Source of the DNA: a bacterium
GTDB taxonomy: Bacteria; Patescibacteriota; Dojkabacteria; SC72
DNA: 64,000 nucleotides
Reading direction: 5' to 3'
NCBI GenBank assembly: GCA_021107795.1
Contig: JAIOSB010000027.1
Coordinates: forward strand, 290-64,289
Positions 1 to 13,807 of this stretch are shown here, one piece after another. The stretch's first letter is position 1. Each line of letters begins with the position of its first letter. The position numbers and the translations under genes were made by a program. The notes beneath the pieces are model-generated. The model made no database searches. It was given only the letters and a program-made list of their open reading frames with translations, and had not been told where the DNA came from.

Positions 1-1148
1 ACACCTTTACCTACTGTTTGTCCTCCTTCTCTAATTGCAAATGTTTGACCATCCTCAAGAGCTACTGGAGCAACTAAGGTAACGCTAAACTGTGTATTAT
101 CACCAGGAGCCACCATTTCAGTACCTTCTGGGAGTGTTACATCACCAGTTACATCTGCAGTTCTGATGTAGAACTGTGGCTTGTATCCACTTACAAATGG
201 AGTATGTCTTCCACCTTCTTCTTTGCTTAGGATATATACCTCAGCTTTAAATTCGGTGTGAGTTTTTATAGATCCTGGAGCACAGAGAACTTGACCTCTC
301 TCTACATCCTCTCTCTTAAATCCTCTTAAAAGAATACCTACATTATCACCAGCTTGAGCATCTTGCATGCTCTTGTTGAACATCTCAACACCAGTTACTG
401 TAGTTTTCTGATCTTTCCTACCCATTCCGAGAACCTCTACCTCTTCAGTTAATTTGATAGTACCTCTGTCAATTCTTCCTGTTGTTACTGTACCTCTACC
501 TTCGATAGAGAAAACATCCTCGATAGCCATAAGGAATGGCTTCTCGACATCTCTTTTAGGAATCTCAATGAATGAGTCTACAGCTGCCATAAGTTCTTTT
601 GCTGCAGCAAGGCCTTCTTCTTCACCTTTCTCAGCTGCTAATGCACTACCTACAACAATTGGAGCTTTCTCATCAAATCCATACTTCTTGAGAAGATCCC
701 CAACATCTGCTTTGATAAGTTCTATAATTTCCTCATCAGCACCAGGGAATTTGTTGATGAAAACAACAATCTTAGGAACACCAACCTGCTTTGCAAGCAA
801 TAAGTGCTCTTTTGTTTGTGGCATTGCACCATCATCAGAAGATATAACTAAAATTGCACCATCCATTTGTGCTGCACCTGTGATCATATTCTTAATATAA
901 TCTTTATGACCAGGACAATCTACTAATGCATAATGTCTGCTCTCTGTCTCAAACTCTACGTGTGCAACAGAAATTGTCAATGACTTTGCTCTTGAATCTG
1001 GATCCTTATCAAGCTTGTCAATCATTTTACTAGCCTCTTCTGAATGGGCATTTAGGATACCTCTAACCAAAGTAGTTTTACCGTGATCTACGTGTCCCAA
1101 TGTACCGATATTCATATGGGGCTTTGTTCTTACGAATACATCTGCCAT
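1..1148 (-). CDS. tuf: Elongation factor Tu, divergent; 3' end runs off the window
   Basis: Manual minus-strand translation from ATG 1148: [26 protein letters not shown]...[24 protein letters not shown]...[16 protein letters not shown]...EGGRHTPF...[14 protein letters not shown]. Absent from the ORF track because there is no stop in the window. Confidence 0.97.
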
Positions 1149-1228
1149 GAATATTAAAATAAATAATTTATATATATAATATGTTTATTAACATACTTTA
1201 AGATTCTCAAACTGAGAACCTGCGCTGA

Positions 1229-1257
1229 ATGTTATCAAAAAGTTGGTCTTTTTGCAA
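1229..1257 (-). promoter_or_regulatory. Putative sigma70 promoter for tuf
   Basis: Minus strand TTGCAA (1257-1252), 17 bp, TAACAT (1234-1229), with TGn extension. A small hairpin TTCTCA/TGAGAA (1204-1218) lies in the 5' UTR. Confidence 0.6.
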
Positions 1258-1446
1258 GAGGTTTCCTTATTTTACCAAGAAAAGATTCTCTCTAGAAACC
1301 CTCCAAGCATGGCATGGTCTGTCCTATAATATAGTTTTTGCAAACAAGAGACCTAATTATCACCATACCTAAGGTGTTATATCTCCTTTCTGGTGTGCAC
1401 GGACTTGTAAATATGTGGAATTAAGAAACCCTGTCGTAAAGCCTAT

Positions 1447-2088
1447 TTAAGAAGTTTCTGAGATTTTGAATTTCTCGTATTTTTTAATCTCAAACAATTT
1501 TCCGTTGTCTATCATCAAACCATACAGTAAACCAAAAGCACTTGGATTTAAAACATGGAAGTTCTGATTAGTAGCTCCATAGTGTGTATGACCACAGATT
1601 AGGAATCTCTTTTCCCCTGCCCAATTCCCCTTAATATCATCTATCTGACATTTAAACATATTGAGGAAACTCTTCCCTACAATTTTAAAACCGTAATATT
1701 GAATCCAATACCCATATTTTTTTAGAAACTCCAAGTTCAAATCGTCTACCAGTCCATGCCCATGTTCAAAATGTAGATTTAGCCCATCTAGATCTAAGTC
1801 TATTGCTTCTGACTGAGTTTCGGAGAACAGATTTGCGTTATTATCAGAGCGTTCTTTGGAATCATGATTACCAAAGATGTAATGTGCACCTTTTGACTTT
1901 AATAATGGGAAAAGCTCTTTCTTCCAGTCAGAATTAATAAATTCTTCGAATGTACAAAGTTCACTGTCCCAGAAATCTCCACATATTATTACTTTATCTG
2001 CTTTCTCACACCAGTATTTTACCCAATCGAAAAACTTTTTATCGTACTTTACTCGAAGATGACTGTCGGAGAATACAAAAACTTTCAT
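1447..2088 (-). CDS. Calcineurin-like metallophosphoesterase (LpxH/YfcE-like)
   Basis: Motifs DSH, GDFWD, GNHD, HGH and GHTH in canonical order. Confidence 0.9.
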   Translation of the reverse strand: MKVFVFSDSHLRVKYDKKFFDWVKYWCEKADKVIICGDFWDSELCTFEEFINSDWKKELFPLLKSKGAHYIFGNHDSKERSDNNANLFSETQSEAIDLDLDGLNLHFEHGHGLVDDLNLEFLKKYGYWIQYYGFKIVGKSFLNMFKCQIDDIKGNWAGEKRFLICGHTHYGATNQNFHVLNPSAFGLLYGLMIDNGKLFEIKKYEKFKISETS

Positions 2089-2112
2089 AGGATTAATATA
2101 TATTGTAGAGTT

Positions 2113-4209
2113 CTATACATCACTTCCTGAGAGTTCTTCTGTTACACTCTTTGGCACTTCTGAGTATTTCTCAAACTCAACATTTGCACTACCCCTACCA
2201 CTAGTAATTGATCTCAGTTCACTTGTATATCCGAAGAGTTCTGCTAGAGGGACAAATGCTTTAACTAGAGTAATTCCATTCCCAATACTCTCAGACCCTT
2301 GGATTTGACCTCTCTTACTACTCAAGGATGCGGTTATATCTCCCATATTAGCATCTGGCATTTCTACTTCTACCTTCATCAAAGGCTCAAGGAGTATAGG
2401 TTTTGCTCTCTTACATCCAGATTTGAAGGCCATAGATCCTGCAACTTTAAATGCAGACTCTGAAGAATCTACTTCATGGTAAGAACCATCATATACCGTT
2501 ACCTTTATATCTACTACTGGATATCCAGCGACTACACCAGATTTCATAGATTCTACTACACCTTTTTGTATAGAAGGTATGAATTCTTTAGGGATAGATC
2601 CTCCTTTAATAGCATTAACAAATTCGAATCCTTTACCGGCCTGATTAGGTTCCAATTTAAGCCAACAGTGTCCATATTGTCCCTTACCACCAGACTGTTT
2701 GACATACCTACCTTCACTTTCCTCACATATATTTTTAATTGTCTCTCTATATGCTACCTGTGGTTTCCCTACATTCGCTATTACATTAAATTCTCTCTTC
2801 ATACGGTCTACCATAATTTCGAGATGCAATTCACCCATTCCAGAAATAATAGTTTGTCCCGTCTCATGATTAGTTTCTACTTTAAATGTAGGGTCTTCCT
2901 TTGCAAGCTTAGCAAGTGCTGTACCCATCTTCTCTTCATCAGATTTAGTGGCTGGTTCAACAGCTTGAGATACAACTGGTACCGCAAATACAATTTGTTC
3001 AAGAATAATATGCTCTTTCTCATCACAAAGTGTATCTCCCGTTGTTGAATCCTTAAGCCCTACAATTGCTCCAATATCTCCTGCTCTCAACATATCTACT
3101 TCTTCCCTGTCATCAGCATGCATTAATACAAGTCTACCGACTCTTTCTCTTATCCCTTTAGTTGAGTTGTAAACATAACTTCCTGCCTTAAGAGTCCCTG
3201 AGTACATTCTAAAGTAGGATAATGTCCCAATATGTGGATCACTTACAATCTTAAATACTAAAGATGAGAATGGTTCATTTTCATCTGGTTTTCTTTCAAT
3301 CTCTTCTTTAGTTTTAGGATCAATACCTTTAATAGCAGGAACATCAAGTGGAGATGGCAAACAGATAGTGATGTAATCAAGAAGTGTCCGAGCCATTGCA
3401 GATCTACCATCGCCTCCCATTACAGGGTACATATCTCCTGCAATAGTAGCTTTCCTAAGTGCACCATATAACTCATCTACTGTAATTTCTTCTCCTGCGA
3501 AATATTTCTCCATCAAACTGTCTTCCTGCTCTACAAGTTTCTCAAGCAAAATCTCTCTATATTTCTTCACCATATCATTCATTTCCTCTGGGATTTCTCT
3601 CTCTACTAATTCTGGAGAGTCTATTCCATCATATTGATATGCCTTCATCTGTATCAAATCTACATATCCATTAAGTTCTGTCTCTCTTCCAATTGGGAGA
3701 TTAATAGCAGTTGCTTTTGGACTTAACCTCTCCTTAATTGTACCAAAACTCTTTTCGAAATCTCCACCAATTAGATTTATCTTGTTCATAAAACAGATTC
3801 TAGGAACATTATATTTGTTTGCTTGTCTCCAGACTGTCTCTGATTGTGGTTCTACACCTTTCCTCCCATCAAAAAGAACAACAGCACCATCTAATACCCT
3901 AAGAGATCTCTCAACCTCTGCTGTAAAATCTACATGGCCAGGGGTATCTATAATATTGATTCTGTGATCCTTCTTTTTATACTCCCAAAAACATGTAACA
4001 GCTGCTGACATAATAGTAATCCCTCTCTCTTGCTCTTGCTCCATGAAGTCTGTAGTTGCAGCACCATCATGTACCTCTCCAATCTTGTGTGTTTGTCCTG
4101 TAAAGAAAAGTAGCCTCTCAGTAGTAGTAGTCTTTCCAGCGTCGATATGAGCAATGATACCAATGTTTCTCACTAACTCTAAGGGCATCTTAATATTGTA
4201 GGTTTCCAT
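2113..4209 (-). CDS. fusA: Elongation factor G
   Basis: [57 protein letters not shown]; 698 aa. Confidence 0.98.
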
Positions 4210-10897: not shown

Positions 10898-13807
10898 TTA
10901 AGGACGACAAGGTGGACATTTTGATTCTGATTGAACTCCATTTACACAACCCATATCCACTAAGAAAGCGATAGGGTCAATATATTGACCGTTATGTGTT
11001 ATTGTAAGGTGTACATGAGCTCCTGTCCAGCAATAGAAAACCCCATTCTTATTAGGCCTGGTTGTCCCCAAAGGATCATCAGCAACTATCTCAGCTGCAT
11101 ATTGGTAGATATATGCGACTGGCTCACCAGCTTTGTAGTTACGACCATTTCCTGGAGGTATTAGTTTGGTATGCATGAGATTAAACACATTTCCCTGACC
11201 ATCACTGAACTCTATATTCCACCCAGTAAAACCACCGTCAGTACATCTCCATGCAGCCATGCTTGATAGTTTTGCTGTACAGGTAGAGGTGTCACAATAT
11301 TGTGGAGCGAAGAAAAACTTCATTCCTGCTAAGTCTACTGGGTATAGATTTGTAATATTCTTGTGAGAACACTTTGTATTACTAAATCCCTGAGTACAAC
11401 GATATTTGACATCACCAAATGGACAGCTAGAATTGGTTGGTGCAGGGATATTGATAGGAGGAGGAACAAAGTTACCACTAGAATACAGATAGCCAGAGCT
11501 AAATCCTCCATATCCTCCAAAACCTTTATTTTCGTATATGGTACCTGGTATTTCTCTAGAATATGAATCTACTGAGGCCCTATTGCTATACTCACTTGAA
11601 GCTCCAATTAACAATATTAGTCCAAATACCCCGACAAAAGCATAAACAATTACCTTTATCGACAACTTCGTAACTCCTTCCATAACCCAAGCTACTACCA
11701 CTGTCACGGCTGTACCCAAAGGACCTGCAATTGCAGTACCTGCAAGACCAAATGCTGCGACAATACCTTGAGATATAGCACTTGATAAGGCAGCTCCTCC
11801 TGTTGCCTTCCATGATGTCAATAAAGCCATAGCAGCTTTGTCTTTTGTAAAGAATTTAAGCTTAGAGAGAACAGAGAATACACCCTTTCTTATACCCGTT
11901 TGTACTTTCCCCAAGGTTTTTTCTTGAAATAGACTCAACATCCTTGCAGGTGTGCTAAATATAGCTGTAACTTTAGACCATTGTTCAAGTGCATTTGATA
12001 TTTTCTCAGCTTTAAAAAATTTTTTAGCAAAAGCACTGTTTTCATCCCCTAAACCTTTTAGAACATAGCCCAATATATTTCTGTATTTAGGTTCTTTGGC
12101 AAGCAATTGGATTTGTTCCGTAGAATTAAGTTTTTTGTATTTTTTATAAAATTTCCAGAATTTAGGATCTTGCAATTCTTTGAATACTCCAGACTTAACA
12201 CTCCACATTTTCTTGATTTCTATTTTTTTATTATCTGCCACCCATGCAAACCCTTCTCCTGTAAACATAGATTTTACCCAAGTTGCTGGGTTCATATAGT
12301 AAAATCGAACCATACCATCGTTGTATGCATCTCTTAAATTTCGCTTATATGAAATCTCTGCTGATTTTGATTTCACAAATTCTACTTTATTCCACTTCCC
12401 CTTGCCAATTAATATTGTACCCGCATTATCTACTGGGCAGCCATAATATCCTTTAATAGGGTTGTAGAAATCCCCATTGAGAATAGCTTCAATTCCTCCT
12501 GGTCCAAAAGTCTGTTTCACCCCATAATAAAGACCCTCAGCTGCTCCAATTCCACTCCACAATTGAACACTATTCAAAGATCTTCTCGTCGATCTTAATT
12601 GTTTAATATTCTTTTGAGCTACAGATATCTCAGCTCTCTTCTGTGATTTTGACAATTTGCCATAATCTATAAGATTACTACCTGTACCAAATGTCTTCCC
12701 ACTTCTAATAGCTTTTAATCGGTCTCTTAACTCTTCCTCGTTAGATCGGATATTGCTCTTTGCTCTCTTCAATTTAAAAAGTATTCCCTCATCTTTACTT
12801 CCATCAAGACTCTCTGCTCCCTTCATAGCCCTAGCATCGAGAGTGTCATACTTTTTCCATAACTCTAAGATATTATTCGAACTTTCTAGCTTATTATATT
12901 CCACCAATTCTTTTGCTGTTAGTTGAGACTTCGTCCTGTTACCTAACAAATCGTTTTGCCTTTCTTCAAACTCCAGACCTAAAAGGCTCCTAAATGTTTC
13001 AGCACTAGAAATTGTGTCGGTAATCTTATCTATATTATCTTGAGTGTCTTCCCACCGTTTACTATCCGTTTTCTTGTTCAAATTCTTCAAAGAGGCTTCT
13101 AATGCATTAATACCTTCCATACCATTAAGAGAATTAATCTGATTGGTTAACTTCTCCTTCAGCTCCTTTCCTTTCCTTGTATTTTCATCCACCTTGTTCT
13201 TTCTTGCAATTAATTTTCTAACGTCAGTCCTACTCACATATCCATCTTTTCTTAATTCTTCAGAGGCTCGTACAATCCATTGCCTATCTCTAGGACTTCC
13301 CGAATCTTGGGCTGCCTGTCCTACTGCTCTCTCAAGGGTATTTTTAAGATCCCCATACCCCTCGAATAGCCCCATCTTTTTGGCATATGTACTCCCTGCT
13401 AAATATCTCATAGCCTCACCAGCCCATCTGATATTCTCCATTTTAGATATGGTTTTGTTTGTCTCAAAGAGTTTGTCTATGAATTCATCAGGCTTCTCGA
13501 AGAAATCGGGTAACCCACTTGCTGTCAGCTTGACTACAGGTATACGACTAGTCTGTACTCCCACTTTGATAGTCGGATCAACCAGTCCTTGCATAGCTCC
13601 TAGGAATTGATCTCCCACAAACATCCCTGGCATAGCCAATGCATCTACCAAGGTTTGTACATACTCAGAACTTGCTTGACTATCTGCTGTTGGTGGAGGT
13701 CTTACTGGTTTCCTTTGCTCTGGAGGTAATTCAGATTGTTCCAGAACAAAACCTAGGATATCTGATACAGATGATATTGTTTTATCCTTACCCTTATATC
13801 CAGCCAT
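10898..13807 (-). CDS. Large membrane protein with C-terminal M23-peptidase-like domain
   Basis: Basic/coiled N-terminal region, Gly/Ala-rich TM segments, C-terminal TQGF..H..VDL..LMH..GEPVA..TGAHVHL..IDP. Confidence 0.7.
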   Translation of the reverse strand: MAGYKGKDKTISSVSDILGFVLEQSELPPEQRKPVRPPPTADSQASSEYVQTLVDALAMPGMFVGDQFLGAMQGLVDPTIKVGVQTSRIPVVKLTASGLPDFFEKPDEFIDKLFETNKTISKMENIRWAGEAMRYLAGSTYAKKMGLFEGYGDLKNTLERAVGQAAQDSGSPRDRQWIVRASEELRKDGYVSRTDVRKLIARKNKVDENTRKGKELKEKLTNQINSLNGMEGINALEASLKNLNKKTDSKRWEDTQDNIDKITDTISSAETFRSLLGLEFEERQNDLLGNRTKSQLTAKELVEYNKLESSNNILELWKKYDTLDARAMKGAESLDGSKDEGILFKLKRAKSNIRSNEEELRDRLKAIRSGKTFGTGSNLIDYGKLSKSQKRAEISVAQKNIKQLRSTRRSLNSVQLWSGIGAAEGLYYGVKQTFGPGGIEAILNGDFYNPIKGYYGCPVDNAGTILIGKGKWNKVEFVKSKSAEISYKRNLRDAYNDGMVRFYYMNPATWVKSMFTGEGFAWVADNKKIEIKKMWSVKSGVFKELQDPKFWKFYKKYKKLNSTEQIQLLAKEPKYRNILGYVLKGLGDENSAFAKKFFKAEKISNALEQWSKVTAIFSTPARMLSLFQEKTLGKVQTGIRKGVFSVLSKLKFFTKDKAAMALLTSWKATGGAALSSAISQGIVAAFGLAGTAIAGPLGTAVTVVVAWVMEGVTKLSIKVIVYAFVGVFGLILLIGASSEYSNRASVDSYSREIPGTIYENKGFGGYGGFSSGYLYSSGNFVPPPINIPAPTNSSCPFGDVKYRCTQGFSNTKCSHKNITNLYPVDLAGMKFFFAPQYCDTSTCTAKLSSMAAWRCTDGGFTGWNIEFSDGQGNVFNLMHTKLIPPGNGRNYKAGEPVAYIYQYAAEIVADDPLGTTRPNKNGVFYCWTGAHVHLTITHNGQYIDPIAFLVDMGCVNGVQSESKCPPCRP

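Follow-up and report, generated by a model that had tools for sequence, protein, structure and literature searches.

The 64,000-nt stretch of DNA analyzed here (the window) belongs to a Dojkabacteria-type genome, G000, of 667 kb in 30 contigs and 98.65% completeness. At its left end, a tuf ORF on the minus strand starts at position 1148 and extends past the window edge; in the genome, the gene is found at G000:C19:1437-268 and encodes an EF-Tu of 389 aa. It occupies the str/S10 position, with fusA before it and rpsJ after it. The features of both elongation factor genes are listed in Table 1, where residue numbers follow the E. coli style and were taken from Salmonella EF-Tu with N135 fixed, under which G18, R58-G59, D80-H84 and S173 fell correctly.

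Table 1. Features of tuf and fusA in the window (positions in nt; EF-Tu features unless marked EF-G).
Feature	Position	Strand	Remarks
tuf, EF-Tu, 389 aa	1-1148	minus	Final 7 codons and stop just beyond the window, then rpsJ
G5, GSAL	639-650	minus	S173, A174, L175 canonical
Helix D, rewritten	699-716	minus	V149I, E150K, E152D, R154G; lies in the surface contacted by the EF-Ts N-domain
G4, N135 K136 F137 P138	744-755	minus	Guanine-reading Asp absent; followed by a one-residue deletion
Loop SSDDG	828-842	minus	A107S, T108D; Asp108 is a candidate substitute acid
G3/switch II, DCPGH-K-D	900-920	minus	D80, G83, H84, D86 kept; A85K; DCPGH itself at 906-920
Switch I/G2, rewritten	969-1010	minus	D50 and T61 kept; A52D, E54D, E55S, R58K, G59S
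Helix A, KTTLVRGI	1056-1079	minus	T28V, A29R, A30G; R/K at 29 in 56/56 order sequences
G1/P-loop, GHVDHGKT	1074-1097	minus	Canonical; G18, H19, D21-K24 and T26 with 0 changes in 82 rewired EF-Tus
fusA, EF-G	2113-4209	minus	Rewired in parallel with EF-Tu
EF-G G5, GGDG-R	3403-3417	minus	Ser to Asp and a one-residue deletion
EF-G G4, NKIN	3775-3786	minus	Asp to Asn

A gene for a calcineurin-like metallophosphoesterase (1447-2088) lies between fusA and tuf, a slot that is variable and holds only about 400 bp in G002, a genome of the same genus. The tuf leader (1149-1191) consists almost wholly of A/T and contains nothing resembling a Shine-Dalgarno run, and a promoter scan upstream of tuf gave nothing above chance. 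Elsewhere in the window (10898-13807), we noticed an ORF of 969 aa whose N-terminal part is long and charged and which also has hydrophobic segments; its C-terminal part contains Cys and by eye looks M23-peptidase-like.

The encoded protein scored 591 bits against the EF-Tu equivalog TIGR00485 (cut-off 522.4, model positions 4-394), and the EF-1alpha and SelB models scored under their own cut-offs on it. Full-length alignment to EF-Tus in the PDB recovered the G domain and two beta-barrel domains with no SelB-type extension, and the best PDB sequence match was 6I8R (E=1e-159). An AlphaFold model, which is ligand-free and gives no pocket geometry, contained the expected EF-Tu elements (pLDDT 84, pTM 0.80), with the G4 and G5 blocks at 89-96 and switches I and II below 50.

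The original prediction held that this EF-Tu lacks the guanine-specificity Asp of G4 and has a rewritten switch I and an altered helix after the P-loop, with G1, G3 and G5 intact. We found that G4 reads exactly as claimed, that switch I is rewritten, and that the G1 motif and DCPGH of G3 are unaltered; KTTLVRGI is likewise present, outside the range 744..1020 assigned to the finding. Several changes had not been noticed, namely the deletion after G4, A85K, A107S/T108D and the four helix D substitutions V149I, E150K, E152D and R154G.

Compared with the canonical NKxD type, the window EF-Tu retains the G1 pattern GxxxxGK[ST], the G2 Thr and G3 DxxG with the catalytic His, and its G5 follows SA[KL]; it reads KSLTI instead of the G2 consensus RGITI and NKFP instead of NKxD, and is accordingly a variant and not a canonical member. 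In excerpts of PMC6144822 and PMC4286738, the guanine contacts of E. coli EF-Tu are given as N135, D138, S173, A174 and L175, with K136 stacking. Five of these six residues are kept here, D138 being the absent one, and so are all the phosphate, Mg2+ and catalytic residues. Asp138 is invariant in 89/89 aligned canonical EF-Tus. Among the columns conserved in at least 90% of these 89 sequences, 26/107 were changed in the G domain versus 7/93 in domains II/III (Fisher p=0.002), and the changed sites cluster in helix A, switch I, A85, the 107-111 loop, G4 and helix D.

A tuf of this kind could reflect faulty sequencing or assembly, a copy undergoing decay, or a specialized paralog beside a normal tuf. 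G000 is in 30 contigs with no assembled 23S rRNA, so a repeat could be missing, and two of 40 relatives (G002 and G034) have an additional canonical tuf. These extra copies (L048 = G002:C125 and L047 = G034:C37) lie on contigs of 1.2 kb and 2.9 kb, have an identity of about 60%, and fall outside the class on the EF-Tu tree; because of the very short contigs and this placement, they are probably bin contamination. A second rewired tuf in G217 (L177, G217:C64), which is placed among other genera on the EF-Tu tree, is probably of the same nature. Each of the single-contig relatives G003, G023, G027 and G206 gave one EF-Tu match. In G000 itself, an HMM search returned one match above the EF-Tu cut-off, the four weaker ones being TypA, LepA, EF-G and IF-2, and neither HMM nor tblastn found a second tuf, which answers the question of whether this is the only copy. 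Contigs of two sequencing runs from different studies, X1 at depth 10 and X2 at depth 114, cover window positions 1-2520 with 0 differing letters; the comparison uses contigs and not reads, and either run may be the source of the window DNA, so the relatives are the stronger proof against sequencing error. Five further genomes carry an NKFP EF-Tu at 89-96% identity, most of the closest named records (72-81% identity) bear the title WS6 or Dojkabacteria, and the G domain was readable in 39 of the 40 relatives, with the G4 Asp absent in 39/39.

Against the five relatives with 89-96% identity, dN/dS was 0.033-0.063 for the G domain (dS >1 in 3/5 pairs) versus 0.076-0.101 for domains II/III, indicating that the rewritten domain is constrained at least as strongly as the rest. 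The gene thus has the position, the single copy and the purifying selection of a housekeeping tuf, and the specialized paralog offered as one option in the original prediction does not agree with these features or with the TIGR00485 score. Together with order-wide fixation, they largely refute the reading as error, decay or paralogy, to which we give practically no credence. From its sole-copy status, we infer that the window EF-Tu is essential. Among phage records, there were 81 EF-Tu matches, the best 10 of them at 58-60% identity and none close. In G000, no tmRNA was found, and 39 tRNAs were found, including an Ile tRNA with anticodon TAT.

To describe the spread of the trait, we surveyed 130 EF-Tu sequences. 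They come from 129 of the 221 genomes of the class, picked so that all 22 families are represented, and the extra canonical copies of G002 and G034 are excluded from the counts. Canonical EF-Tus (NKxD, S173, A85, RG) made up 15/130 and were found in families f19-f22; another 47/130 read N[IVMLR]F[DE], keeping an acid at 138 and losing K136, and 68/130 had no acid at 138. NKxD was therefore absent from 115/130 sequences, all 115 of which have Phe or Tyr at 137, 113 Lys or Arg at 85, and 106 Lys at the switch I Arg site. Within the order of the window, the acid at 138 was missing from 56/56 sequences (55 genomes), with the G4 types NKFG (30), NTFG (12), NKFP (6), NDFG (3), NQFG (2) and three others, and R58K was present in 56/56. 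The statement that G5 is intact stands for GSAL in the window EF-Tu but is misleading for the order, where position 173 is Asp in 36, Asn in 10 and Ser in 10 of the 56 sequences.

A concatenated EF-Tu and EF-G tree was built from 98 rows, 82 rewired and 16 canonical, with the motif columns removed and a quick IQ-TREE search. In the 82 rewired rows there were 0 changes at G18, H19, D21-K24, T26, T61, D80, G83, H84, D86, D109 and N135, and a small residue at 174 is held across the lineage. Positions 136, 138 and 173 changed 20, 12 and 19 times, respectively, versus 0 for all three in the canonical rows. Phe137 is newly fixed, with a single origin and 1 change in the 82 rows. The trees suggest that NKxD first gave way to N[VI]FD, that the acid was lost after this, and that Lys136 then returned in the order of the window; since deep nodes are only partly resolved, this order of steps is tentative. 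A third form of switch I was seen in L196-L219 and related loci (f8, f13-f16 and one f17); it reads IAKGG(V/I)xR...KIVTV, contains an insertion and has Ala in place of D50. A loop resembling it occurs in one outside-class genome that keeps NKVD (L228).

Outside the class, 368 of 373 other Patescibacteria genomes gave an EF-Tu match, and no rewired G4 appeared among the loci read. Sixteen genomes scored like rewired EF-Tu, all of them through partial matches; in the 30 loci from these and 11 borderline genomes, G4 was readable in 21 and read NKxD in 21/21, the remaining outside-class EF-Tus being judged by score only. Alignment with Patescibacteria sequences bore out NKFP and extended the loss of the G4 Asp to the whole order. 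Two records titled Saccharibacteria with a rewired EF-Tu sit within the class clade, so transfer is not needed. A search of the literature on Dojkabacteria, WS6 or Patescibacteria EF-Tu, NKxD and Asp138, covering titles and abstract starts with subscription papers mostly outside its scope, found no publication on this trait; a paper on Dojkabacteria ribosome biogenesis (PMC12641178, excerpt) treats the subject without EF-Tu, and a term search within PMC4342817 returned nothing on it. By these sequence comparisons, the loss of the G4 Asp is real and lineage-wide, and the protein is a new EF-Tu variant.

The other elongation factor of the window is altered at the same motifs. Loss of the G4 Asp was seen in 63 of 94 class EF-Gs; of these, 62 have Asp and 1 has Asn at the G5 Ser position, versus Ser or Ala in 31/31 that retain the G4 Asp. 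On the tree, each trait changed 4 times, and 3/3 independent pairs agree (p=0.25, the pairs being too few). The EF-G of G000 carries this G5 Asp, a position at which the window EF-Tu has Ser173, and it keeps RGITI. EF-Tu and EF-G changed on different branches: family f21 combines a rewired EF-G (an NKLA/GDA swap) with a canonical EF-Tu, and f13-f16 show the reverse.

We also examined the remaining GTPases. Of 30 genomes searched, 29 gave a match, and in these IF-2 and LepA each carry [NTS]KxD in 29/29; in G000, TypA (NKID) and Obg (TKSD) are canonical. The retention in IF-2 and LepA indicates that the elongation factors alone have changed and that GTP is in use in these cells; general GTPase decay in a reduced genome was rejected on the same grounds. 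The YchF of G000 (G000:C22:23448-24542) has an apparent G4 of NCKE, read by eye without alignment, which is not N(T/M/L/V)xE. In the draft G000 genome, guanylate kinase, GMP synthase (C domain) and the Ham1/RdgB ITP/XTP pyrophosphatase were not found, losses that may be common in this phylum. An Ndk-like gene was found in G000 and 55/65 members of its family, and G000 also has pyruvate kinase; Ndk was found in 0/8 genomes of families f2-f5, 0/1 of f11 and 1/7 of f12. The Ndk-like gene of G000 (G000:C24:6313-6612) matched the Pfam model in two pieces within a frame of about 200 aa, as in most of the class, and a plain full-length match was limited to four f21 genomes. Loss of Ndk as a driver was rejected, since G000 and most of its family have the Ndk-like gene and there is no simple link.

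It had also been suggested that this EF-Tu might be independent of EF-Ts. A tsf gene with the TDFV motif is present in G000 (G000:C27:14047-14775, L006), as that suggestion required to be checked, and tsf was found in 101/101 class genomes searched (at least 93% complete); EF-Ts loss was rejected, and independence is disfavored, with the reservation that a kept gene is no proof of need. In G000, EF-Ts has a tandem N-terminal UBA-like domain and a remodelled linker. This domain is doubled in 18/19 sequences from the order and 0/26 outside it, as counted in the 45/51 loci that could be parsed with a pattern needing the TDF motif. In the M. tuberculosis EF-Tu/EF-Ts complex (PMC9529903, excerpt), an Arg of the EF-Ts N-domain contacts residues that map here to P111 and E152, and in the window EF-Tu these are A111 and D152. 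This suggests that the EF-Tu/EF-Ts interface has been refitted, a pattern of single origin that allows no statistical test; a refitted helix D/EF-Ts interface also argues against EF-Ts independence.

How, then, might this factor work? The reading that we favor, at about even odds, is that it is still GTP-driven, with weak binding, fast exchange and no discrimination between G, X and I. N7 and O6 would still be read by N135 and the G5 loop, so that 6-oxo purines are preferred and ATP is disfavored. The N1/N2 edge would go unread, leaving GTP, ITP and XTP undistinguished, and GDP and GTP would be bound more weakly and released faster. With GTP as the abundant 6-oxo NTP in the cell, the factor would act as a GTPase. 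Phe137, the shortened G4 loop and the helix A changes may repack the pocket, and EF-Ts with its doubled N-domain would have been refitted to the changed helix D and not lost. The relaxed specificity or weak nucleotide binding proposed at the outset fits the evidence, and the hold of this EF-Tu on GTP is probably weaker and less selective than that of any EF-Tu whose description we found. E. coli EF-Tu D138N reportedly switches specificity to xanthine nucleotides. As an analogy, that switch suits the EF-G of G000, with its NKIN, and suits the EF-Tu, with its Pro, less well; a strict xanthine switch of the window EF-Tu is unlikely because the factor would be essential and high-flux. In excerpts of PMC8916776, most substitutions of Ras D119, and those of K117 and S145, are activating via faster nucleotide release, meaning that such proteins still cycle. 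The same source gives a destabilization of about 25 kJ/mol for D119A, and excerpts of PMC2120555 and PMC2120845 report that Ypt1 with G4 Asp changed to Asn (D124N) binds neither GDP nor GTP and that Ran D125N has a greatly reduced GTP affinity. These defects imply that uncompensated loss is perhaps not viable and point to hidden compensation.

Such compensation could come from a relocated carboxylate that still reads N1/N2, placed at 173 in the majority of the order, at 136 in the NDFG proteins and at 108 in this clade, with affinity and specificity near normal, a reading we regard as possible but doubtful. The pairing of G4 loss with a G5 Asp in EF-G argues for it and indicates that the acid matters there; D173 occurs in 43/68 EF-Tus with no acid at 138 versus 0/62 with one. 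The NDFG EF-Tus stand on two separate branches with S173 in 3/3, D108 is present in 6/6 NKFP EF-Tus, and within the order D173 is absent from 13/18 EF-Tus with D108 versus 7/38 without it, a contrast that comes from essentially one lineage. Of 298 guanine-binding structures, 43% lack NKxD and 20.5% use another Asp or Glu (PMC11594714, excerpt). The window EF-Tu, however, has neither D138 nor D173, position 173 is among the restless ones in the 82 rewired rows, and the sequences with D108, which form a single clade on the EF-Tu tree (support 0.87), are unresolved on the concatenated tree. The 25/68 EF-Tus that lack D173 as well as an acid at 138 (13 Asn, 12 Ser), and three (G159, G078 and G081) with no acid at 108, 136, 138, 139 or 173, show that an obligatory acid swap does not fully account for the EF-Tu pattern. 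The swap from G4 to a G5 Asp is thus, in the sequences compared, a feature of EF-G and of those 43 EF-Tus, and not of the window EF-Tu.

A more radical reading makes EF-Tu a promiscuous purine NTPase or an ATPase, with elongation running partly or wholly on ATP; we consider it rather unlikely. It draws on Era, in which loss of the G4 Asp with a G5 acid gives ATP preference, an account that also explains SpoIVA (PMC7952092), on YchF, whose ATP use is tied to G4 N(T/M/L/V)xE (PMC8959515), and on the NTP-promiscuous FeoBs, which are marked by a variable G5 (PMC11406355), all three as given in excerpts. The restriction of the change to two high-flux factors, sparing IF-2 and LepA, the failure to find guanylate kinase and GMP synthase in G000, and the families with little or no detected Ndk would agree with it. 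EF-Tus of f7 (NMFE) and f10 (NLFE), and some of f12, match the YchF pattern in form only, and NKFP does not match it. The acid of SpoIVA stands at Ser +2 in a G5 SxE, where the window EF-Tu, having lost the Asp, has the Leu of SAL, and it keeps K136, S173, A174 and L175. The Ndk-like gene and pyruvate kinase also stand against it, and a coordinated fuel switch would not predict that EF-Tu and EF-G change on different branches. In its fullest form, both elongation factors of the order would have given up guanine specificity to run on ATP or any purine NTP, with initiation and assembly GTPases remaining GTP-specific. That is distinctly unlikely; if true, it would be a natural ATP-powered elongation cycle, suiting a cell with no detected guanylate kinase or GMP synthase. 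The switch I change from RG to KS may instead be a separate adaptation that removes an antiviral or toxin protease site, unrelated to the nucleotide. The protease Lit cuts within RGITI. In excerpts of 10.1101/2024.10.24.620036, cleavage of E. coli EF-Tu by a type IV Thoeris protease falls directly behind the switch I Arg, and the enzyme accepts only Arg at P1. In nearly all rewired EF-Tus, Lys takes this site. The preprint lists 83 sites in 70 proteins for this promiscuous protease, so that one change would not protect; the EF-G of G000 retains RGITI, and G4, G5 and helix D would be left unexplained. We therefore hold this reading to be very improbable.

The textbook-invariant Asp138 is missing from the only EF-Tu of a whole order. 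With neither the G4 Asp nor a G5 Asp, this clade would offer the cleanest natural test of the role of the NKxD Asp, and of whether elongation needs GTP itself or merely a purine triphosphate. The class provides a graded natural series for binding and structural work (NKxD, NxFD, NxFG with D173, NKFG with N173, and NKFP with S173), and may be a source of elongation factors for cell-free translation whose nucleotide use is orthogonal.

Compared with canonical EF-Tu (TIGR00485; E. coli TufA/B, 1EFC/1DG1), the window EF-Tu shares the three domains, the str/S10 position, the P-loop, T61, D80-H84, S173-A174-L175, the domain II/III residues and the EF-Ts partner. It differs in having NKFP and a deletion for NKxD, KSLTI for RGITI, A29R/A30G, A85K, T108D, a rewritten helix D and an EF-Ts with a doubled N-domain. 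With the engineered xanthine GTPases (EF-Tu D138N, Ypt1 D124N, Ran D125N), it shares removal of the G4 Asp, and the EF-G here has exactly their Asp to Asn change. Unlike in those proteins, the EF-Tu residue is Pro, which lacks an amide for reading xanthine; the substitution is a natural one, is fixed and comes with many others, and EF-G adds a G5 Asp. YchF/OLA1, SpoIVA and V. cholerae FeoB share the TRAFAC fold and an altered G4 and/or a variable G5, and the YchF pattern recurs in form in some class EF-Tus; those proteins are not core elongation factors, whereas the window EF-Tu is one, and it keeps K136 and the SAL loop with no SxE acid. Finally, EF-G II (PMC3150367, excerpt) is likewise a translational GTPase with a relaxed RGITI, but it is a duplicate that retains NKxD and gSAx, whereas here the sole copy has changed and NKxD is lost.
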